This document shows, piece after piece, positions 600 to 61,979 of a DNA stretch of 64,000 nt. The position numbers were made by a program, and so were the translations under genes. How positions within the stretch are numbered: position 1 is the first letter of the stretch; the number at the start of each line of letters is the position of its first letter. This DNA is from a virus, in IMG/VR virus record IMGVR_UViG_3300046370_000202; one strand, 5' to 3'. The notes beneath the pieces were generated by a model. That model searched no databases. It saw only the letters and a list, made by a program, of their open reading frames with translations, and was not told the origin of the DNA.

Positions 600-1035
600 T
601 TTCTAACCTCGTCATAAGTCGTTCAGCACGATTGCTTACTTGACGGTACCATAATGAATCACGACCTTCAGCGGCCGCGGTTTCCCAGTCATCTCTATAT
701 AGAGCTGCCTGCATCTTCTTGAACTTGGACAACCGTGGTCGCCCAAGGTTGAACATCATATTAACCAGTATCTGCTTGACTTCGTCTGGAAACTTATGCC
801 ACCCGTTTCCGTATAACACAGTGCATTCTGCGAGTGCGGTGTTAAGGTCGGATTCGAAAGCTTCGGCGACTCTTTCTTCGGATACTTTAGTTCCGATTGG
901 GTATCCATGCTCGGGGTCACTCTCTGTGATGAGATGTCCAACACCGAACGTGGGATAGTTGAGATGGTCGAGGTAAATCTCATAGACAACTCCTTCGTCA
1001 ATCTTTAGTTGTTCAAATACAGCATTACGATTCAT
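547..1035 (-). CDS. e: T4-type lysozyme/endolysin (GH24)
   Basis: DEG..Y.D...YPT.GVGHL catalytic E/D/T pattern, NM.FNLG, SLWYRQ..NRA.R. Confidence 0.9.
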   Translation of the reverse strand: MNRNAVFEQLKIDEGVVYEIYLDHLNYPTFGVGHLITESDPEHGYPIGTKVSEERVAEAFESDLNTALAECTVLYGNGWHKFPDEVKQILVNMMFNLGRPRLSKFKKMQAALYRDDWETAAAEGRDSLWYRQVSNRAERLMTRLENVPKRHLSIYDCYGGGR

Positions 1036-1052
1036 GTTGTATTATACTCCAA

Positions 1053-1244
1053 TTAAAGTTTGATTGCAAGCGTTACGAGAATTGCACATAGTAAAATATT
1101 AGTCATCAACAATTCTAATGCCAAAATAGTATGGTACCAGATCCATCGAGTCTTGTAGGCATTATCTACAGAGATGTCTTCAGGATCTGGACCATTGTCT
1201 ATCTTGCTTACTTTATTGAATCGTAACCAAGATAAGAGTTTCAT
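1053..1244 (-). CDS. small membrane protein
   Basis: 63 aa, C-terminal hydrophobic helix, directly upstream of lysozyme. Confidence 0.6.
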   Translation of the reverse strand: MKLLSWLRFNKVSKIDNGPDPEDISVDNAYKTRWIWYHTILALELLMTNILLCAILVTLAIKL

Positions 1245-1246
1245 AT

Positions 1247-2890
1247 TTATGAACCGTCTGAGTCAGCAGGAGCTGGTCCGGCAGAAAGGGTTGCTAAATT
1301 ATCAGCAAATTTATCCGACAATAACATACTTGTAGAATATCTTTGGAATATATTTCCGCCTGAGAATTGTTGGTACTGCATTGGTTCGTTGTATTCTTGA
1401 ACAGCGCCATGAGAAATCATTTCTATCTTGTTCTCATCAAAATATCTATAAATCGTATACAACAGATTGTATGCATAACCAGTAGACATGCTGTTGCTTT
1501 GGACGTCGGTCCAACTGAACACGATAAAATGTTCTTCATCTAACCACATAGATTGTAAAGACTCATTAGGAGCCTTGTACGAATCAGTTCTGTGAGTATT
1601 CCAAGCATTAAGGTATTCCGTGCTTGTAAATTGCTGTGGGGAACCCGAACTAATACCCTGAACTTGTTGTTCTCTTCCCCCAACAAACATCCATGTTTTG
1701 AATGTACGAGAATTTTCAACACCATTAAATGTAGAAATGTCCTTATCTACTTCGGCAGCATAATCGCTTACTGTCATAGTGTTTAGTGGTAACCAAACAC
1801 CAAAATCTTCTCTACTGCCTGGTAAAGATTGGTCATCACATCTTCGGCCTGTTAGTCCCCAAGAACCATCAGACGGATTGTACGTAATGAAGTATTCATT
1901 ATATGACATATTTGCGTTAAAGTTGGACCAATAGTGACTACCCTGCGTACCGGTGGATTCTTGAACTGCACCAAAGTGCAATAACCCGTCTCTACCAGTG
2001 ACAACGGACAACCACCTCATTGTATTTGCATTGCCTTGGTCGCCCGAATAATCTGAAGCGTGCCCATGCATCACCGGCCAGTTATCATAACTACTTACTA
2101 AATCTACATCAACATCAGATGGTCGCATAACTTGAAAGTTATTTTGATCTAATTCAGGCACAAAGGACCATGTGTCTCCATAACCACTATAATCCGCAGT
2201 TCGCCATGTAGACTGGGTTCTTATATGTGGACCTCTATAATTTGAACACACAATTCTATTGGTCAAAGATTTTGTTACTGGGTCCCAAGATCGTTCAACC
2301 AAAGATCCCCCTCCCCAAGTCCAATCAGAATTAGATTCATAAGTGAGAATTTTATTCTCTTCCAATTGATGCATAAATCGATGATGTATGCCATAACCTT
2401 GTTGATATGCACTACTGTTATAATTGTAAGCGCCACCCATCAAAAAATTAGGAATTTGTTGATCAAGGTCTGTTACGGATACCGTATTGCCATTAGACTC
2501 ATCAATTTCTATAATAAAATGTACACTGCCCTTATTGTTGGCGCTTCTAACCGTAGACGTAAGAACCTTCATATAGACAGCTGAAGAACTTAATCTACAC
2601 ATTTCTATATTACTTGTACGTGTTGTATATAAATTCTGTAATTGAGAATTAATAGCTTCGGAATATAATACTGTTTTTTCAGTAGGGGACTGTAAATCGT
2701 CCACCTCTGAAACTTCGACGAACCAATAATTTTCGTCTTCTTGCATTCGGATGCTGAATATCTTGCGGTCGTTATTTCCGCCGATCCAACACCACCCGAA
2801 CCCGTTGCTGTCGGCAACGTTGTTTCCAGAGGTGGAGCCGACATTACCGCTAGCATATGGAATGTTTACATCTATAATTGTTGTTGACAT
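1247..2890 (-). CDS. putative virion structural protein
   Basis: 547 aa S/N/G/W-rich beta-type composition; late promoter and AGGAG RBS upstream. Confidence 0.5.
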   Translation of the reverse strand: MSTTIIDVNIPYASGNVGSTSGNNVADSNGFGWCWIGGNNDRKIFSIRMQEDENYWFVEVSEVDDLQSPTEKTVLYSEAINSQLQNLYTTRTSNIEMCRLSSSAVYMKVLTSTVRSANNKGSVHFIIEIDESNGNTVSVTDLDQQIPNFLMGGAYNYNSSAYQQGYGIHHRFMHQLEENKILTYESNSDWTWGGGSLVERSWDPVTKSLTNRIVCSNYRGPHIRTQSTWRTADYSGYGDTWSFVPELDQNNFQVMRPSDVDVDLVSSYDNWPVMHGHASDYSGDQGNANTMRWLSVVTGRDGLLHFGAVQESTGTQGSHYWSNFNANMSYNEYFITYNPSDGSWGLTGRRCDDQSLPGSREDFGVWLPLNTMTVSDYAAEVDKDISTFNGVENSRTFKTWMFVGGREQQVQGISSGSPQQFTSTEYLNAWNTHRTDSYKAPNESLQSMWLDEEHFIVFSWTDVQSNSMSTGYAYNLLYTIYRYFDENKIEMISHGAVQEYNEPMQYQQFSGGNIFQRYSTSMLLSDKFADNLATLSAGPAPADSDGS

Positions 2891-2945: not shown

Positions 2946-5216
2946 TTATTGCGTCTCTAGCAGTTTTCGCAAAACTAAAAGACCACCTTCGCCCTGTTGT
3001 CCAGAAGAACCACCTACACCGGCGTTATCTTTATAGTAAGTGTTTGTTAAGTGTGTTGTGGTAGAAGCGCTTATTAGGTCAGGCGAAACATATCCAGATC
3101 CACCACCCGCTGCTTTAGGAATATCTACAGTAGGAGGTTGTATATCATTTGACACCCATTGATACATTGATCCGCCCCACAAACCGCGATCGCCTTTGAC
3201 AAAATACATTATCACACCAGTGTTGATGGTGGGAGTATATACTGCTAGGTTGTCGTTTCCATATATGCTACAAGTAATGCTTCCAGTAAGGTATTGTTGG
3301 CTAACATTTTTAAGAATAGTATTAACGAAGAACCACTCACTGTTATTGCTTTGATTAGTGTGAGCTACCCTCATTTGTCCCCAAGATTCTGTTCTTGTAC
3401 TATTCGTAAGATTCGTACTGCCATCAGAACCCAAGTTGCCCCATGTACCAACAGAGAAGTTAAAGGTAGGATCATTGCATTCGACATCCAGTTTAAAGAT
3501 TCCTCGAACTGTCCAACCATGTTTTACGGTAAATGTTCTGCCATGATGGGTTTGTGTTTCTGTGTATATTACACCGTCGTTACCATTCATATTTGCAAAA
3601 CTAATATAAGAAGCCGAACTAGTTACAGGGTTGTAAATATAAAAATCTCCCCAATCATCAAACCAATCACCGCCCCAATCGCTCCACCTATACCTTGTTC
3701 CAGTAGGAGTTAGACCTCCATTCCAACCGCCACTATGATATCCATTTTGAATTGTTCGAGGCGATTGGGCGGACATGTCCTTACTAGGAGTGCCTGTATA
3801 TTGACTATACCCTTGACCACCTGTCAATCCTTTAGATTGTAAACTTGTACCATTTCCTTCTTTGACTGCAGCGCCACCGCCACCGTAGTAACCTCCGCCA
3901 CCGCCAGATGATTCTTCGCTTCCGCGGCCACCTTGTAGAGCAGAACCGGACAAAGCGGTTGGATCTCCAGCACCACCACCACTTACTTGTGTTCCACCAG
4001 CACCAATACCGCTGCTAGTTGTAGCCCAACCACCATGACCTCCGGTTGCGCCACCACCACCGCCGCCAGCTGATTCTGCTGAACCACCACCGCCGCCGCC
4101 TGCAATAATTAATGATGAGGCCTGACTGACCGAATTTACAAATATGCCAGTATATCCACCACCACCAGCACCATCATTAACTTCAGTAGTGTTTTGTTCT
4201 GTTCTTCCTCCGCCGGTTGAATACGCACCATATGCGTCGTTAACTACTGGGCTCTGAGAACCTCCTTCACCACCGCCGCCAACAACTACGTGATATTCTA
4301 CGTTTGGTTCAAACGTGTATACTCCGGTCGAGTATCCTCCTCGACCTCCTCGTTCGCTAGAAGACGATTTGCTTCCCCCAGCGCCAGCGCCCCATAAGTG
4401 CATCTCCATTACAGTCGGTTTATCAACTGTAAAACTTGTAGAGTGATATGCCATATCGGTTTCTGCGGCGCTCAGAGAGAAAGTTTCCCCTTCACCTACA
4501 TTATGAGAAGATTCTAAACTGCCTGAGAATGAAATCTGAGTATACTTCATGAACAGACGTGATGTAGTTCCATAGATACCGGACATAGATCCTAGAACCA
4601 CTTCATTGGCCCAGATACTGTCATTTGGTTCACTAGATGGGAACAGCCTTGTTCCGCCAGTGACTTCGGTACCGTCTAGAGTTAGTTTAGAGGTCTCGCT
4701 GTAAATATCTGAGATAGATCCTAGAACCACTTCATTGGCCCAGATACTGTCATTTGGTTCACTAGATGGGAACAGCCTTGTTCCGCCAGTGACTTCGGTA
4801 CCGTCTAGTAGAAGTTTAGATGTAGTTCCATAGATACCGGACATAGATCCTAGAACTACGTCATTGGCCCAGATACTGTCATTTGGTTCTTCGGACGGGA
4901 ACAGCCTTGTTCCGCCAGTAACTTCAGTACCGTCTAGTAGAAGTTTAGAGGTCTCGCTGTAAATATCTGAGATAGATCCTAGAACCACTTCATTGGCCCA
5001 GATACTGTCATTTGGTTCACTAGATGGGAATAGAATTGTTCCACCAGTGACTTCGGTACCGTCTATAACTAGTTTAGATGTAGTTCCATAAATATTGGAT
5101 ATAGAACCAAGGACCACAGGGTGATCCCACTGTGGTGGACGGACTTCTTCGACACCGTCCGAAGTAAGAGCGACATTACCACTAAGTACTGCGCCCGTTT
5201 TTAGTATTAGTCCCAT
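2946..5216 (-). CDS. virion fibre/adhesin-like protein with 43-aa repeats and glycine-rich domain
   Basis: WGAGAGG...GG.GGY...IIAGGGGG glycine-rich domain; N-terminal tandem repeats. Confidence 0.65.
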   Translation of the reverse strand: MGLILKTGAVLSGNVALTSDGVEEVRPPQWDHPVVLGSISNIYGTTSKLVIDGTEVTGGTILFPSSEPNDSIWANEVVLGSISDIYSETSKLLLDGTEVTGGTRLFPSEEPNDSIWANDVVLGSMSGIYGTTSKLLLDGTEVTGGTRLFPSSEPNDSIWANEVVLGSISDIYSETSKLTLDGTEVTGGTRLFPSSEPNDSIWANEVVLGSMSGIYGTTSRLFMKYTQISFSGSLESSHNVGEGETFSLSAAETDMAYHSTSFTVDKPTVMEMHLWGAGAGGSKSSSSERGGRGGYSTGVYTFEPNVEYHVVVGGGGEGGSQSPVVNDAYGAYSTGGGRTEQNTTEVNDGAGGGGYTGIFVNSVSQASSLIIAGGGGGGSAESAGGGGGGATGGHGGWATTSSGIGAGGTQVSGGGAGDPTALSGSALQGGRGSEESSGGGGGYYGGGGAAVKEGNGTSLQSKGLTGGQGYSQYTGTPSKDMSAQSPRTIQNGYHSGGWNGGLTPTGTRYRWSDWGGDWFDDWGDFYIYNPVTSSASYISFANMNGNDGVIYTETQTHHGRTFTVKHGWTVRGIFKLDVECNDPTFNFSVGTWGNLGSDGSTNLTNSTRTESWGQMRVAHTNQSNNSEWFFVNTILKNVSQQYLTGSITCSIYGNDNLAVYTPTINTGVIMYFVKGDRGLWGGSMYQWVSNDIQPPTVDIPKAAGGGSGYVSPDLISASTTTHLTNTYYKDNAGVGGSSGQQGEGGLLVLRKLLETQ
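4556..5118 (-). repeat. 129-bp (43-aa) coding tandem repeat, ~4.4 units
   Basis: cctagaac anchor at 4591, 4720, 4849, 4978. Confidence 0.9.
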
Positions 5217-27282: not shown

Positions 27283-27441
27283 TCCCCACAAGTACGGCGC
27301 CTTTTAGACATTTTGTTTGGTGAAACTTGATATAACTCTGCTGGCATTTTTACATGCACGATTTGAGAGATCTGCAGATCTTATCAGTGCGCCCGTGCGC
27401 AAAATTCACTCTATGTCAGACTAACCGTACTCTGTGGGGGA
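27283..27441 (-). ncRNA. ~160-nt rod-shaped structured RNA (6S-like candidate)
   Basis: Nested complementarity CCCCACA.AGTACGG/CCGTACTTGTGGGG, GACAT/ATGTC, GTGAA/TTCAC, GCACG/CGTGC, AGATCT-GC-AGATCT. Confidence 0.55.
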
Positions 27442-27443
27442 AC

Positions 27444-27519
27444 TGGTGGAGCTAGAGGGAGTCGAACCCACGACCTCTTGAATGCAAATCAAGCGCTCTC
27501 CCAACTGAGCTATAGCCCC
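27444..27519 (-). tRNA. tRNA-Ala(TGC)
   Basis: Cloverleaf, G3:U70, GTTCGA, CCA. Confidence 0.95.
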
Positions 27520-27529
27520 CTTATCTGTC

Positions 27530-27537
27530 TATTTATA
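27530..27537 (-). promoter_or_regulatory. late promoter TATAAATA
   Basis: Exact consensus just upstream of tRNA-Ala. Confidence 0.65.
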
Positions 27538-27549
27538 CCACATTAATAT

Positions 27550-27617
27550 TGGAGCGGAGCGTAGGAACTTCCCCTACCTCAGCGAGGGGTACTCGCCGAC
27601 TCAATACTGAACTCCGC
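27550..27617 (-). ncRNA. non-canonical tRNA-Gly-like RNA, copy 1
   Basis: GCGGAGT/GCTCCGC-T-CCA acceptor; 8-bp stem with TACCC loop; GTAGG/CCTAC T-stem. Confidence 0.75.
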
Positions 27618-27623
27618 AAAACT

Positions 27624-29036
27624 TTAGTCGCACCCAAGTTCTTGACGCGACACTTCATCGTTGTTGATAGGACAGTTGCCACTTGGTAACGACTCTGGCA
27701 CATATCGCATCAACTCTGGATCATGCAAACCGTTCTCAAGGAACGCAACAAGGTTTGCAATCTCATCTTCGGTCAAGTCTAACGGCGTGAACCGATAGTC
27801 AAGGTCATACGTCTCCACTTGTGGGTGTTGGGGAACCGCATCAACTTTATATCGCACGACATCCTCTACACTAGAGAACGACGCACCGTGACCGAATACA
27901 GTAGTATCTATAAGGTTGTAAAGAGGCGGAACTTTGAACGCAAACTTCTCCATCTCATCACCAGTGAATCCACCACGACCCTCTCTAGTCGCATCGTTGA
28001 CTTCACCGACCGTGTCTTCCCAGATATCTAAATCGTGGAAACCGACAGTCATAAACACTTCGTCTGCCATCGCACCAACGGGAGATGACAACGCAGGTCC
28101 GTTATGACACGCATAACAGTTACCCTTACCGAAGAACACTTCCGCACCAGCGACTTCAGATTCAGTCATCGCAGTTTCGTCACCTTTCAAGTATGCTTGG
28201 AAGGGTGCTTGATTCGCAAGAATAGTCCGTTCGTATGCGGCGATCGCTAGTGCAGTTGCCTCTAACATATCGTCGGGTTCTGCAACACCGTAGGCAGCTT
28301 CAAACATCTCACGATAAGTTTCGTTAGTGCGCAGGATAGAATCATCTGTGTCACCCTGACGATGCACACCTAGACCCGCAACTGCTTGTGTCTCTAGACC
28401 AGCAAAGTTGCGTAGGTTTGCTTCTTTCGGAGTACCTTCTGTGAAGTGACGATCGGGATCAATACCAACATTGACATTACCCGCAATCACATTACCTAAC
28501 TGACCATTCCACAACATCACTTCTTGGAATGCCGTGTTGAGTACAGTGGGTGTTGCAACAGGTTGCACATCGATGTCTTCGGGATTGACACCCTCAGCGA
28601 TCATGCGATGATCAAAACCGACACCACCTTCACCTATACCCTGACGAATACCAGACTTGAATCCGTTTTGGGCATTGTGACATGACGCGCACGAGAATGT
28701 ACCTTCACTGGACGCAATGTCGCCTTCAGTGATACCAGTCTCATGATAGATTAACTTACCTAGTGCAACTTTCTCTGCAGTAATAGGATTACTTGGGTCT
28801 TGCGGAATGTTATCGAAGTCATCACTGTCGGGAAGGATGTATTCTTCGTATGAACCTGTCGTTGATGTGGAGTCAAGTAACGTGAGTAGATTGTCACGTG
28901 CCTCGACTGCTGGATCAACAGGTGTTACAGTTGGGGGAGTCACGACCACAGGGTCGGGGGCGGATGCGTTATCTGCTCCGCCAGAACATGCACTCAGGAG
29001 TGCCGTAGACACAGCTACAGTTAGTAGTTTCTTCAT
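27624..29036 (-). CDS. di-haem cytochrome c peroxidase/MauG-like lipoprotein
   Basis: Lipobox LLSAC, CASCH and CYACH, WNG, FKVP.L.N, GH.A. Confidence 0.85.
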   Translation of the reverse strand: MKKLLTVAVSTALLSACSGGADNASAPDPVVVTPPTVTPVDPAVEARDNLLTLLDSTSTTGSYEEYILPDSDDFDNIPQDPSNPITAEKVALGKLIYHETGITEGDIASSEGTFSCASCHNAQNGFKSGIRQGIGEGGVGFDHRMIAEGVNPEDIDVQPVATPTVLNTAFQEVMLWNGQLGNVIAGNVNVGIDPDRHFTEGTPKEANLRNFAGLETQAVAGLGVHRQGDTDDSILRTNETYREMFEAAYGVAEPDDMLEATALAIAAYERTILANQAPFQAYLKGDETAMTESEVAGAEVFFGKGNCYACHNGPALSSPVGAMADEVFMTVGFHDLDIWEDTVGEVNDATREGRGGFTGDEMEKFAFKVPPLYNLIDTTVFGHGASFSSVEDVVRYKVDAVPQHPQVETYDLDYRFTPLDLTEDEIANLVAFLENGLHDPELMRYVPESLPSGNCPINNDEVSRQELGCD

Positions 29037-29079
29037 AATATAAGAGCCTCTCAATACTCTATTTCAAGTTTCGATAAGA

Positions 29080-46417: not shown

Positions 46418-47365
46418 TCAATTATTCCTGTATATAAATTCTAATGCCCTGTCCGCCTCTACGGTCAAGGGTCTATTCTCATACCAATTACCAGTCTCAC
46501 TGTCAAACTCACGGCACAAATCCGAAATCTGTTTTGCGCTGATCGGATATCCCTTAGAGTATGCATTACCTGCAATCGCAATCATAATCTTGTACATCTT
46601 GGAATACCATCCCGTTTCCGTGATCTGTTGATATTCCGCACCCAACCTACGGGGCCAGAAAGGACAGTCACGATAAGACGACCATCGGTAGTCGGTGTTA
46701 TTTAGACTGTCTTTACGATGCTGTATTATCGCCTTCTGCATCTCTGGCGGCAGTCTATCTAGGAAAGAATTCCCAGTCTTCTCGTGATAAGGATGTTTTG
46801 CAATCAACTCAGATGCGTTGAGGGCAGACCCACCTGAGTTAACAATAAAGAAACTATAAGCGTCCTTATACTGGCCTGGCGCATAGTACATACGTGCGAG
46901 GTCTTTAGTCTGTGGATCGCCCAACTCACCCAGTTCGGTGTTGAGGGCGTGCCAAAACGGTTTTATACGAGCATTCTCAATCTGTTCATCCAGACGGAAT
47001 ATAATGCGAAATTTAAGATTATCTCTTCTACACCCTGCTGTATTATAAACGACATAGTCATACTGACCATACTGACGTTGCAACCAAGTTCTTAAGGACT
47101 CAGTATCACGGCAACCGTCAATAGGGTCATCCACATCAACGCAACACCAACTACTCCAATAAAGAACAGACTTGTTACTACGCGTCGTACCCACGTCGAA
47201 CACAGCAGGAGTAAGAAGAGGAGAACTGTTAGGACCACCTTTCTCTCCTGGCTTAGTGTAAGAATCACGAAGACACACCACGAAGTCCATCCACGACATA
47301 AACGTGGTACGACGATGTGTCTTGTTATCAAACTGGTTTTTAAAAATTGTTAGTTCGTATGTCAT
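46418..47365 (-). CDS. primase-polymerase (AEP)-like protein
   Basis: DVD, KFRIIF.L, D...KD..R.YY.P. Confidence 0.6.
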   Translation of the reverse strand: MTYELTIFKNQFDNKTHRRTTFMSWMDFVVCLRDSYTKPGEKGGPNSSPLLTPAVFDVGTTRSNKSVLYWSSWCCVDVDDPIDGCRDTESLRTWLQRQYGQYDYVVYNTAGCRRDNLKFRIIFRLDEQIENARIKPFWHALNTELGELGDPQTKDLARMYYAPGQYKDAYSFFIVNSGGSALNASELIAKHPYHEKTGNSFLDRLPPEMQKAIIQHRKDSLNNTDYRWSSYRDCPFWPRRLGAEYQQITETGWYSKMYKIMIAIAGNAYSKGYPISAKQISDLCREFDSETGNWYENRPLTVEADRALEFIYRNN

Positions 47366-48498
47366 CTTATGATGTCGATATCTTCGGGATTAGTATTCCA
47401 AGTCTCAACTATCGTGCGTAGTCTACCCTCGGACTTAAGGGTCTCATAACGTTTAGACGCCTTGTTCTTCCACCACTCAATGATATTCTCAACTTCGAAT
47501 CTGTCAAAGTTTTCTGCTGGTTTGAGTTCATCAGTTTTTAAATTCATGTAATCTTTAACCGACTGAGCCTCATGACCATATGTGCTATAATACGAACGCT
47601 TACGTTCTGTCAGACCCTTCGCATCAAGGAAGGTTTGACAGAACTTTTGATACGCACCATCATCCACACCTTTGAGTGAGGCCTTGATGATTGAAGCCAT
47701 CTTTGTCTGTGTCTTCAGTTTACGAGATGACGCATCGGCGGGAACCAGATACTCACCCTCGTTGCGTTCCTTGAACCAGTCGTTCAGTGTTCGGAACTTG
47801 GTATCGTTGATCAACGGTGCAAAGTTACTGTCTGTCAATCCGTTGTGACGTAAGAACGGCCGCATACCATCATACATCGATGATGACTTAGAGGAACCAT
47901 ACAAACTAGTTGTTTCGAAAAGACATATGTTTGCATCGTACTTTTTGTTTAACGCACGACGCACTAGATGCGAACAACAAATGCCCGCCAACAGTTTACC
48001 ACCAAGGTAGTTATATCCTACGGGCTGGACAGGAACAATATTAAAACCCATTATGGCAGACTTGTTAAATCTTTTCATAACATCTGGGTTCATGGTGTCA
48101 AGAGGCGCACCCAACCATTCGTTACGTGGACGCGAATTAATCGTAGGTGACCCAAAACGGATCATCCCAAATACTTGACCAGTGTTCTTCTCTTTGACGA
48201 TGTAGAGAAGTTGTTTGCCTGGGATCGACGACTCGACTGGCGCGGATGTCGTGATCTCCATATATGTCATGAAGTGATCCTGACGACACTCGTATATTGA
48301 GAATTCCATGTCGTTGGGATGAATAGAGAAGTCGTCAAACAAATCCGTCTCTGGGCCCATGCCAGGCAGAGATGCTGGAAAGGTTGCCATACGATCCATT
48401 TTGATAGAACGTTGGTATTCGTCGATGCGATCGAAACTGCCAAAGAAATCAGAAAAGACATTCGCCGCATGGATTGCGTCTTGCTTAGATAGAATCAT
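47362..48498 (-). CDS. DUF4338/DruA-like protein
   Basis: VP.QP.GYNYLGGKLLA, TTSLYG..S.Y. Confidence 0.6.
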   Translation of the reverse strand: MILSKQDAIHAANVFSDFFGSFDRIDEYQRSIKMDRMATFPASLPGMGPETDLFDDFSIHPNDMEFSIYECRQDHFMTYMEITTSAPVESSIPGKQLLYIVKEKNTGQVFGMIRFGSPTINSRPRNEWLGAPLDTMNPDVMKRFNKSAIMGFNIVPVQPVGYNYLGGKLLAGICCSHLVRRALNKKYDANICLFETTSLYGSSKSSSMYDGMRPFLRHNGLTDSNFAPLINDTKFRTLNDWFKERNEGEYLVPADASSRKLKTQTKMASIIKASLKGVDDGAYQKFCQTFLDAKGLTERKRSYYSTYGHEAQSVKDYMNLKTDELKPAENFDRFEVENIIEWWKNKASKRYETLKSEGRLRTIVETWNTNPEDIDIIR

Positions 48499-48521
48499 GT
48501 ATTACTCCCATTACGAAACAC

Positions 48522-48550
48522 ATTATATCAAATAAAGTGTCAACTGTCAA
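48522..48550 (-). promoter_or_regulatory. sigma70 promoter
   Basis: TTGACA-N17-TATAAT. Confidence 0.75.
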
Positions 48551-48555
48551 GACAC

Positions 48556-48579
48556 AAAAAAGGGGACTTGCGTCCCCTT
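48556..48579 (-). terminator. Rho-independent terminator
   Basis: AAGGGGAC-gcaa-GTCCCCTT followed by T run. Confidence 0.85.
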
Positions 48580-48584
48580 GTTAC

Positions 48585-49781
48585 TTACTGATCATCTTCA
48601 GTTGAGATGTCACAAAAGTAATTGCCCTTGCGTTGGTAAAGTGTCTCTGTGATCGGATCATACAGGACTGGTTCATCGAAAGAGTGTGCAGAACCAACAG
48701 CCGGTAGGAGTCCGTATATGCTGATACGCGAGTTACCATCACCATTCAATACAATGTTGGCATCTGACATAAAAGTATTGAACTTGTCAATGTTGTTTTT
48801 TGCAACGGTCTCGAAAGAAGTCAGAGGGTCTGTGCCAGTAAGAGTACTTGTATGCAAAACAATTCGTATCTCTGCATTTGGATTCGCTGCTGCCTTACGT
48901 AAAGCAGAAGTAAATACCTTTGAGATAGTCGAAGCAGCCGAACACATATAGATGACCTTGCCATCTTTCGAATTCTGCAACTTGAATTGCGTCATGTAGG
49001 CCTTGATCTGGAAGTGAGCCTTAGGGTTCGAAGACCACGACGCAACTGGCGTAGAAGGGTTGAACTGGTTGTAGACAGAGTAGGCGATATCGTGGCGCTT
49101 ACCCTCAGTAAACCTAAAACCAATGCGTTCAGTACGTGCAAGAAGATCCTCAATGCTTAGTGGGTTAACACCTGCCTTACCTCCAGACTCTTTAAAGATA
49201 GTCGACTGAACAGTCAGTGCATCCTTTACATCTTCCATTGAGTTCGGGTTAGATGCGGGTTCCTCTTGTAGGGTCTGACCCATGTAAGAGATAGCATCCT
49301 CGACTTCCCACTCAGTTGCGCCTTCTACAGGTACGTAAATGGCAGCAATGTAGTTTTCATGACCGTTCGCTGAGAAGTACTCTTTACGTGTATCTCCGGT
49401 CAACTGAGTGTCGGTTGTACCGACACGTAGTTCCGAAGGTGGAAGTTCGGTTAACTTAAAACCCTTATCCAAAGAACGAAACACATTCTTTGGATCCTTG
49501 ACACGGCCACCTTTGCGGTGATCCTGAGCAACGGTCGATTTTATGGGTTTCAGTTCGAAGTGCAAAAAGCGGATGGCTGGGTGGATTTCATCACCAAAGT
49601 GTTTTGGTTCAGATTCGGACCATAGAGTCTCGTATAACCACTCGTAGGTTTCAACATCTTGTTCGTTGAAGGTGCGTTCCTTCAGATTTATAATCCACTT
49701 CTTCTTGTTTTGGGCCTTTGTCTTCAATGTACCATCAGCGCCACGTGAAGAAGTTATATTTGTTACCTTGTTTTTTGACAT
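48585..49781 (-). CDS. hypothetical protein (possible ParB/Srx-like N-terminal domain)
   Basis: LTGDTR resembles the ParB G..R motif; weak. Confidence 0.45.
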   Translation of the reverse strand: MSKNKVTNITSSRGADGTLKTKAQNKKKWIINLKERTFNEQDVETYEWLYETLWSESEPKHFGDEIHPAIRFLHFELKPIKSTVAQDHRKGGRVKDPKNVFRSLDKGFKLTELPPSELRVGTTDTQLTGDTRKEYFSANGHENYIAAIYVPVEGATEWEVEDAISYMGQTLQEEPASNPNSMEDVKDALTVQSTIFKESGGKAGVNPLSIEDLLARTERIGFRFTEGKRHDIAYSVYNQFNPSTPVASWSSNPKAHFQIKAYMTQFKLQNSKDGKVIYMCSAASTISKVFTSALRKAAANPNAEIRIVLHTSTLTGTDPLTSFETVAKNNIDKFNTFMSDANIVLNGDGNSRISIYGLLPAVGSAHSFDEPVLYDPITETLYQRKGNYFCDISTEDDQ

Positions 49782-49864
49782 TTTGTCTCTCCGATTTAGT
49801 CGTGAGTTAGTTTAGTTTCAATACACTGTCCTTTAGGGATCAGTATTTGTATATAGTACCACAC

Positions 49865-50398
49865 TTAAAGTGTGTTTGGCAAGGGCTTTCTGATAGAAAT
49901 TACATTACCATCCGGATCAGTACACACAAGTTTACCACCTTGAACGTCTTGAACCAAACCCATTGACCGTTTATGGAATCGGTATCTCCAACCGTACCAC
50001 TTTGTTGGGTTACCTTCACCATAAGGCGGATCACATTCCATAAGGTCATATTGACCCGCCGTAACATCGATGATTGTATCGTTATGATTCAACCACCAAT
50101 GTATATTCCCCAGTTCATCTGTACCACTATATGATATGAGATCATCTTTCTCATCACCATCAAGCATGATATACATGGCCTGAGTAGAATGATAACAATG
50201 ACCAAATAAAGGATTGGTCTCGTTATCCTCTTTATATTTAGAAGACAGTAGTTCTGGTCTTAATACCTTACGTATCTCTTCAGAAACTTCATCTACTTCA
50301 TCAAAGGAAATGGGAGTATAACACAAAGTCCAAGTCTTTGTCAAGCCCCACTCACCATCTTCTTTTCTGTCAAAAGATTCTCTTTTTACTGTTTTCAT
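49865..50398 (-). CDS. hypothetical protein
   Basis: GHCY...HWW....D.T..Q, transglutaminase-like C/H/D spacing. Confidence 0.5.
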   Translation of the reverse strand: MKTVKRESFDRKEDGEWGLTKTWTLCYTPISFDEVDEVSEEIRKVLRPELLSSKYKEDNETNPLFGHCYHSTQAMYIMLDGDEKDDLISYSGTDELGNIHWWLNHNDTIIDVTAGQYDLMECDPPYGEGNPTKWYGWRYRFHKRSMGLVQDVQGGKLVCTDPDGNVISIRKPLPNTL

Positions 50399-61854: not shown

Positions 61855-61923
61855 TGGAGCGGGATGTAGGGATTTCACCTACTACAGTAAGGGGTACTCA
61901 CTGTCTCCATAACGAACTCCCGC
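61855..61923 (-). ncRNA. non-canonical tRNA-Gly-like RNA, copy 2
   Basis: GCGGGA/TCCCGC-T-CCA; 8-bp stem with TACCC loop; GTAGG/CCTAC. Confidence 0.75.
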
Positions 61924-61950: not shown

Positions 61951-61979
61951 ATTATACTATAGTATAGGAGTCATGTCAA
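61951..61979 (-). promoter_or_regulatory. sigma70 promoter
   Basis: TTGACA-N17-TATAAT upstream of the tRNA-like RNA and gene 47. Confidence 0.8.

Follow-up and report, generated by a model that had tools for sequence, protein, structure and literature searches.

The window analysed here, a 64-kb stretch of DNA of a marine T4-like phage from IMG/VR record IMGVR_UViG_3300046370_000202, encodes on its minus strand two copies of a mini tRNA-Gly-like RNA, copy 1 (68 nt) at 27550-27617 and copy 2 (69 nt) at 61855-61923. On re-reading, the minus-strand sequence of copy 1 was identical to that given in the original prediction, and folding reproduced the architecture claimed there, namely a 7-bp acceptor stem, a D hairpin without GG, a stem closing UACCC, a minimal variable loop and a 5-bp T stem. 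The acceptor stem is formed by the strands GCGGAGU and GCUCCGC, and the D region consists of a 3-bp hairpin with a GUAU tetraloop. The anticodon-like stem has 7-8 bp, the 8-bp reading being the one that closes UACCC, and is separated by a variable region of 1 nt from the 5-bp T stem, which carries the loop GGAAGUU and is followed by U73 and an encoded CCA. The register of the anticodon loop, G32 U33 A34 C35 C36 C37 C38 with a pairable G32-C38, is fixed by larger family members that are called by ARAGORN. Copy 1 has a minimum free energy of -30.2 kcal/mol (z = -2.9), and 3 of 200 shuffled sequences folded equally well; thus, the fold in itself is just modestly unusual. The acceptor-stem pattern is expected to occur by chance 0.01 times within the window.

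Compared with canonical elongator tRNAs, the two copies retain the 7-bp acceptor stem (in copy 2, 6 bp plus a G.A mismatch), the 5-bp T stem, the discriminator base and CCA, but lack D-loop G18-G19 and T-loop U54-psi55-C56; moreover, a stem of 7-8 bp and C37 take the place of the 5-bp anticodon stem and the purine at position 37. It had been anticipated that standard tRNA finders may miss such an element, and both ARAGORN and Rfam were indeed silent. In its standard and mitochondrial modes ARAGORN called neither copy, whereas its D-loop-replacement and low-threshold modes yielded nonsense folds alone, at lowered thresholds. Searching Rfam 15 at the gathering score and at E <= 10 gave no match over either copy, RF00005 included. 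In the same window, ARAGORN found ten ordinary tRNAs, none of which is for glycine. A role of copy 1 as a transcription terminator was rejected, given that it is followed by no T-run and that a terminator scan was negative; mimicry of transfer-messenger RNA (tmRNA) or of a viral tRNA-like structure was also rejected, since G3-C70 differs from the alanine signal and nothing in Rfam matched.

Copy 2, which was found by a descriptor scan of both strands, lies 34.3 kb from copy 1 between the genes of a gp55-like late sigma factor and a gp47-like phosphoesterase. It follows the same plan as copy 1, with the same GAGUACCCCU core, the same GUACCCC loop and the T loop UGAAAUC. The compensatory changes claimed for a second copy are present in two stems: relative to copy 1, U-A is replaced by A-U, C-G by U-A and G-U by A-U in the anticodon stem, and A-U by G-C and G-C by A-U in the acceptor stem. 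About 28 nt upstream of copy 2, a sigma-70-type promoter (TTGACA-17-TATAAT, 12/12 matches; 61951-61979, minus strand) places the RNA in the 5' leader of the gp47-like gene, and this promoter is presumably active. The copy-2 orthologues in contigs L003, L004 and L009 comprise three alleles, CUUACUGU, CUCUCUGU and CUCACCUGU, which differ solely in the 3' strand of the anticodon stem. The sequence of copy 1 is invariant in all contigs seen.

Relatives were retrieved from uncultured viral contigs by two pattern scans of IMG/VR and by covariance-model searches. Besides near-identical copies from the same lineage, the scans yielded about 20 distinct, far more diverged sequences, the G+C content of which ranges from 46 to 70%. 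When ten relatives were aligned to the proposed structure, 96.4% of cells were paired and 16 of the 23 pairs had changed on both sides, against just 3-6 pairs when the 3' partners were slid. All four helices covary, including the three pairs of the D hairpin (3/3). A covariance model built from the pattern-scan relatives (R1) detected copy 1 at 76.9 bits and copy 2 at 62.6 bits, with no other match in the window. A blastn search with copy 1 and one relative against 50,697 GenBank phage records found no match, because such queries are too short and diverged. The homologues and the covariation in four helices that the original prediction had asked for were thus found, disfavouring a pseudo-tRNA: the element is a genuine, selected, tRNA-Gly-derived RNA and not a decayed pseudogene.

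Members of this family form a continuum from full cloverleaves to the reduced form seen in the window. At one end stand a tandem pair of full cloverleaves in contig L023, each with a D stem of 4 bp and an anticodon stem of 5 bp, and the element of L015, in which the D loop contains GG and the T loop is the standard UUCAAUC; the members of both contigs are classed by ARAGORN as tRNA-Gly(ACC). In reduced members the D stem is down to 3 bp and the anticodon stem up to 7-8 bp. Shrinkage of the former is offset by growth of the latter, and the stacked length would therefore remain at about the customary ten pairs. The tRNA arrays of T4-like contigs end with the element, which often follows at a distance of 7 nt from a normal tRNA-Gly(UCC) with equal GCGG...CCGC-U-CCA ends. 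These shared ends suggest that the element may have arisen by duplication of a phage tRNA-Gly. Element-bearing phages often already encode ordinary tRNA-Gly with UCC and GCC anticodons, and the element is found in many unrelated gene contexts.

Column counts over 49 distinct sequences, both window copies included, revealed which positions are held. The pairs G1-C72, C2-G71 and G3-C70, as well as U73, are present in 49/49 sequences, CCA in 47/49, and C35 and C36 in 48/49 each. In contrast, position 33 is U in 27/49 sequences, position 34 is A in 26, U in 16, C in 4 and G in 2, and position 37 is C in 31 and A in 17; the acceptor pairs 4-7 vary freely, with covariation. The identity set of bacterial glycyl-tRNA synthetase (GlyRS) consists of U73, G1-C72, C2-G71, C35 and C36 (PMC9976931). 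The conserved columns correspond to this experimentally defined set plus G3-C70 and the encoded CCA, and the GlyRS identity elements noticed earlier in copy 1 alone proved invariant or nearly so across the family. Given that the identity positions are fixed while positions 33, 34 and 37 drift, selection appears to act on charging and the acceptor end, and not on codon reading. This combination of conserved identity and drifting decoding positions is the strongest argument for a glycylated non-decoder. As the element overlaps the coding sequence of mom in part of the family (see below), the pairing of the RNA was tested separately on the 49 sequences: 92.8% of cells were paired and 255 cells had changes on both sides, compared with 69 in shuffled and 29-42 in slid controls.

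Mom of phage Mu, a GNAT enzyme, uses Gly-tRNAGly as the source of the glycine that it attaches to adenine N6 in double-stranded DNA (Silva et al. 2026, PMC13219725). It takes all three Gly isoacceptors, refuses Gly-tRNAAla and probably reads the acceptor end; it needs tRNA-Gly with an intact CCA end and uses host tRNAs, phage-encoded tRNAs not being mentioned (PMC13219725). A conserved tRNA-Gly-like "pseudo-tRNA" has been reported inside the mom homologues of Dehalococcoides ssrA genomic islands (McMurdie et al. 2011, PMC3146451). In our first sample, three lineages (L021 and its twins, L027/L025 and L015) have a Pfam Mom protein encoded by the open reading frame (ORF) that overlaps the element, and the mom-embedded elements have ParB-like neighbour genes. 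For a wider sample, 80 mom (PF25680) loci were fetched, of which 78 were searched. R1 matched 17 of these 78, each time at the 3' end of mom. A second covariance model (R2), built from those 17 mom-embedded elements alone with the window sequences excluded, matched 78/78 loci of what is one mom subfamily (63-100% identity to the query), at the 3' end of the gene and on the same strand. In the 64-kb window, R2 recovered the two copies only, copy 1 with 40.1 bits (E 4e-7) and copy 2 with 33.4 bits (E 2e-5). Neither window copy is embedded in a mom gene or located at its 3' end, and copy 1 comes after a cytochrome c peroxidase-like gene.

Several other contigs with the element show different neighbours. 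In the mutually unrelated L024 (2317-2928, minus strand) and L030 (2951-3466, minus strand), the gene of a DUF488-N3a protein ("active DUF488-N3 subclade") ends 4-6 nt past the element on the opposite strand, and in L030 a ParB gene lies on the other side of the element. The DUF488-N3a protein may be a third partner type. In L018, a provirus judged 91% complete, a 290-aa ORF without a Pfam match (699-1571, minus strand) spans the element (729-800), as mom does elsewhere, and could encode a very diverged Mom-like protein.

A candidate partner in the window is the gene of a 378-aa DruA-like (PF14236) protein at 47362-48498 (minus strand), in the DNA replication module. The Pfam DruA match (E 1.3e-9; 38 bits versus a cut-off of 27) covers profile positions 72-180 of 297. 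The ORF has thousands of relatives in marine viral data, PF14236 is found in all the homologues listed, and the PHROGs entry (phrog_19197) is annotated as function unknown. The AlphaFold model of the protein (pLDDT 72.6) adopts a GNAT fold. Its superposition on Mu Mom (8bv8_B) gave Z 8.0 and a root-mean-square deviation of 4.0 over 173 aligned residues, the longest alignment, in a tie with SpeG, AAC(6') and other GNATs at Z 7-8. A Foldseek search of the model against PDB and BFVD returned generic GNAT matches, with Mom entries not singled out; the Pfam Mom profile PF25680 did not match the protein at E <= 10, a threshold at which Pfam cross-hits between the two were likewise lacking. One GenBank record names a homologue "methylcarbamoylase mom", and a literature search for links of DUF4338/DruA with Mom or GNAT found nothing useful. 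The Druantia type I operon (DruB-E) is absent at this locus, where the gene sits between polymerase and primase-like genes, as it does in phages S-SSM7 and HTVC008M.

Analysis of 740 kb around 80 viral homologues of this gene revealed its linkage to glycine tRNAs. Among the 20 tRNAs found there by ARAGORN, 14 are for glycine (10 UCC, 4 ACC), to which R1 adds four Gly-like ones, whereas the share of glycine in the tRNA arrays examined is about 1/10. The R1 matches near DruA-like genes are all on the strand of the gene (16/16); 15 are no more than 1.3 kb away, the distance to the gene end being 9-66 nt for some, and at least ten distinct arrangements of a Gly-type tRNA with a DruA-like gene were counted. 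Many of these neighbouring Gly-type tRNAs have no D-loop GG or have odd T loops, and most retain U33 and A37. In L023, the DruA-like gene lies 0.6 kb before the tandem ACC-type tRNA pair; in contigs G002 and G003, the DruA-like gene and the element are both present, 10-11 kb apart.

Comparison with the nearest GenBank phage, C48C1 (Kyanoviridae), which is syntenic and about 75-90% identical (~75% in DNA sequence around copy 1), showed that the DruA-like gene and both RNA copies are jointly absent there, via clean indels. Copy 1 corresponds to a clean 84-nt insertion in the window, placed between the cytochrome c peroxidase-like gene, after its stop codon, and a TATAAATA motif (27530-27537, minus strand) that lies between copy 1 and tRNA-Ala (27444-27519) and is conserved in C48C1. 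This motif fits the T4-type late promoter consensus; being downstream of copy 1, it does not drive it. Copy 2 is missing from the orthologous C48C1 spacer, which measures 61 nt against 140 nt in the window; the promoter of copy 2 is conserved and in C48C1 is directly followed by the start codon region. A direct cmsearch of the whole C48C1 genome detected no family member. The DruA-like gene belongs to a cassette of three ORFs (177 aa, 398 aa and DruA-like; 47362-50398, minus strand) between the DNA polymerase and primase-like genes. By tblastn, none of the three has a match in the rebuilt C48C1 genome, while the flanking polymerase and primase are 78-88% identical.

Two cassette ORFs accompany the DruA-like gene. 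The 398-aa ORF (48585-49781, minus strand) has no Pfam or PHROG match, and the 177-aa ORF (49865-50398, minus strand) has a weak YunG match. Both are conserved in the same lineage (L009) and were not seen next to DruA-like genes in other phages. The gene at 27624-29054 (minus strand), immediately upstream of copy 1 and conserved in C48C1, encodes a di-haem cytochrome c peroxidase (CCP_MauG) that carries a lipoprotein signal. Of the stretch directly after tRNA-Ala (27283-27441, minus strand), the beginning is conserved in the C48C1 alignment. The window also encodes homologues of isocitrate lyase, alternative oxidase, NifU and Hsp20. A direct repeat of ~61 nt occurs in three near-identical copies at 4603-5050 (plus strand), with spacings of 129 and 258 nt, inside a long minus-strand ORF (2946-5216) that probably encodes a repeat protein. 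In Synechococcus phage S-SSM7, ARAGORN made a permuted tmRNA-like call with a 31-residue tag (L068:1067-1418, plus strand; about 20.97-21.32 kb), which is possibly false.

The reading that we favour, with moderate confidence, is that each copy is a private glycyl carrier, charged by the host GlyRS and used by a phage GNAT, most plausibly for DNA modification. We infer its transcription and processing, charging and exclusion from translation, as well as the acceptor molecule and the role of the DruA-like protein, from the sequences and their gene linkage. Initially, copy 2 would be transcribed early from its consensus promoter, within the gp47 leader, and copy 1 together with the upstream gene and the tRNA region. 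RNase P would cut at G1, a step enabled by the tRNA-like acceptor and T arm, and the encoded CCA would provide the 3' end. Afterwards, the host GlyRS would glycylate the carrier, as proposed on account of the intact identity set G1-C72, C2-G71, G3-C70, U73, C35 and C36. The resulting Gly-RNA would be consumed by a phage GNAT acyltransferase, probably Mom in many phages; in the window phage, which is Mom-free, gene linkage makes the DruA-like GNAT at 47362-48498 the candidate user. With no elbow, a pyrimidine at position 37 and a G32 able to pair with C38, the carrier would stay outside translation, leaving the enzyme with a glycine supply of its own. The earlier claim of a non-ribosomal glycine-donor RNA thus draws support from the conserved identity set, the drift of the decoding positions and the embedding in mom, with glycylation itself presumed. 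More tentatively, the DruA-like (PF14236) GNATs of marine T4-like phages may constitute a second aminoacyl-tRNA-dependent modifying family beside Mom, served by private, translation-incompetent tRNA-Gly carriers. The DruA of Druantia type I and the phage GNAT-fold protein genetically linked to tRNA-Gly genes have a Pfam domain in common. DruA of Druantia type I might likewise act with a charged tRNA.

Several observations weigh against a glycyl carrier or against the DruA-like protein as its user. By Pfam, PF25680 is absent from the window proteins and from the 97-kb contig of the same lineage, and in L018, L024 and L030, which bear the element in contigs 56-91% complete, neither Mom nor DruA was detected. 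Only the shared GNAT fold relates the DruA-like protein to Mom, and at that level Mom ties with many other GNATs; hhalign found no similarity between the two (probability 0.1, from shallow alignments). The DruA-like gene lies 13 and 20 kb from the RNA copies in the window, and S-SSM7 possesses such a gene with a solitary, normal-looking tRNA-Gly(UCC) alone, 3.2 kb downstream, according to a whole-genome cmsearch. Two copy-2 alleles bring a U.U mismatch or a bulge into the anticodon stem. The T4-like members were retrieved by a pattern with a fixed loop, so that the invariance of the loop in this clade is partly imposed. Finally, GGU makes up 48% of the glycine codons in window genes, no ordinary tRNA-Gly is encoded in the window and ACC pairs with GGU, which lends some appeal to a decoding role. 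The main rival, rather unlikely in our judgement, is a working if odd tRNA-Gly(ACC) that would act as the ten other tRNAs of the region do and read GGU, or all GGN codons via an unmodified A34. Boren et al. are said to have found in 1993 that a tRNA-Gly with A34 can read four glycine codons in vitro. Both window copies keep U33, ARAGORN assigns the larger family members to tRNA-Gly(ACC), and the element lies in or closes tRNA arrays, often straight after tRNA-Gly(UCC). Against decoding, however, stand C37 and the pairable G32-C38, both abnormal in decoders, and the missing elbow that follows from the absence of D-loop GG and T-loop U-psi-C. Across the family as a whole, U33 and positions 34 and 37 drift while C35 and C36 stay fixed; family members are embedded in mom coding sequence, and the phages concerned often own ordinary tRNA-Gly of both the UCC and GCC types.

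Conservation of the acceptor end and of C35/C36 with loss of the translation features would also be expected of a decoy or sponge for a host factor acting on tRNA-Gly, such as a TacT-type GNAT toxin, an anticodon or acceptor nuclease or GlyRS itself, which would protect the tRNA pool or retune the host. The invariance of U73 and G71, the bases by which TacT recognises its substrate (PMC9976931), and the strong early promoter at copy 2 fit such a decoy. Nevertheless, we regard it as improbable, since the family has no linked defence or toxin gene, its recurrent linkage is to phage Mom and DruA-like GNAT genes and not to host factors, and a decoy has no need to be embedded in mom. Still less probable is a mere RNA-processing signal, at which RNase P or RNase Z would cleave the leader of gp47 as well as the upstream mRNA at its 3' end, or a small mobile insertion, in either case with no role as a free RNA. 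Both copies are indeed clean insertions relative to C48C1 with short common flanks (AAAGTTT upstream, TCCAAT at the 3' end), and copy 2 lies within an mRNA leader. However, tRNA shape suffices for cleavage, which leaves the invariant identity set and CCA across 49 sequences unneeded; neither a target-site duplication nor a transposase was seen, and many unrelated contexts are occupied. Decayed, functionless pseudo-tRNAs are the least probable of all, even though the standard finders reject both copies and some copy-2 alleles contain a mismatch or bulge. Compensatory changes extend over four helices in about 20 and in 49 distinct sequences, one genome keeps two diverged copies, and the reduced architecture is conserved across elements of 46 to 70% G+C; covariation brings this reading close to refuted.

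Non-ribosomal tRNA-Gly donors and the use of Gly-tRNAGly by Mom are already known, and the element was called an undescribed system with partial justification. A tRNA-Gly-like locus in mom had been reported in 2011 (PMC3146451), and the enzyme chemistry became known through work of 2023-2026; in the literature consulted on Mom and tRNA-Gly, a phage-supplied glycine carrier is not described, nor, in that on Mom, are its reduced form and the link to a second GNAT. Like the Dehalococcoides mom pseudo-tRNA (PMC3146451), the family to which the window RNA belongs is a conserved tRNA-Gly-like locus tied to mom and near ParB-type genes, and R2, built from mom-embedded elements, recovers both window copies. 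The Dehalococcoides locus, which we compared by its description, differs in being a 76-bp element of a bacterial island, located near the gene start according to its authors and assigned no function, whereas the window RNA has 68-69 nt and a reduced D arm and occurs in a T4-like phage in two copies with no adjacent mom. The Mu Mom system (8bv8) also comprises a GNAT that needs tRNA-activated glycine, and the family of the window RNA is genetically fused to mom. Unlike the window phage with its proposed carrier, Mu employs host tRNAs, and the candidate enzyme of the window is of a different GNAT family, PF14236.

Staphylococcal non-proteinogenic tRNA-Gly species, which feed FemX/A/B, keep glycine identity, have lost D-loop GG and the T-loop consensus, and serve extraribosomal glycine use. 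The window copies likewise keep glycine identity and have lost D-loop GG and the T-loop consensus. The staphylococcal tRNAs are cellular and full-length, have a UCC anticodon and serve the cell wall, whereas the window RNA is encoded by a virus, is shorter by 8 nt, combines an ACC loop with C37 and has DNA as its likely acceptor; the parallel is one of function and need not reflect common descent beyond tRNA-Gly. Mitochondrial tRNAs with a reduced D arm, for example metazoan mitochondrial tRNA-Ser(AGY), have a short or replaced D arm, a longer anticodon stem and lost elbow contacts, and decode on specialised ribosomes. Their architecture is similar to that of the window copies, yet the mitochondrial modes of ARAGORN refuse the latter. 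The GNAT toxin TacT relies on U73 and G71 to recognise Gly-tRNAGly (PMC9976931), and both bases are invariant in the family; however, TacT acetylates the amino acid and thereby blocks translation, and nothing similar is linked to the family.

In summary, this widespread and easily missed RNA family retains its charging signals, while those for decoding have been given up. If the proposed reading is true, DNA hypermodification could have a supply line of glycine apart from translation, and the element would be a simple genomic marker of tRNA-dependent modification systems. With its thousands of members among marine phage sequences, the DruA-like family would be indicated as a likely user, and the RNA would offer a natural 68-nt minimal substrate for studies of GlyRS and GNAT recognition. 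In phage genomes, many tRNAs called "missing" or "pseudo" would then merit re-reading.

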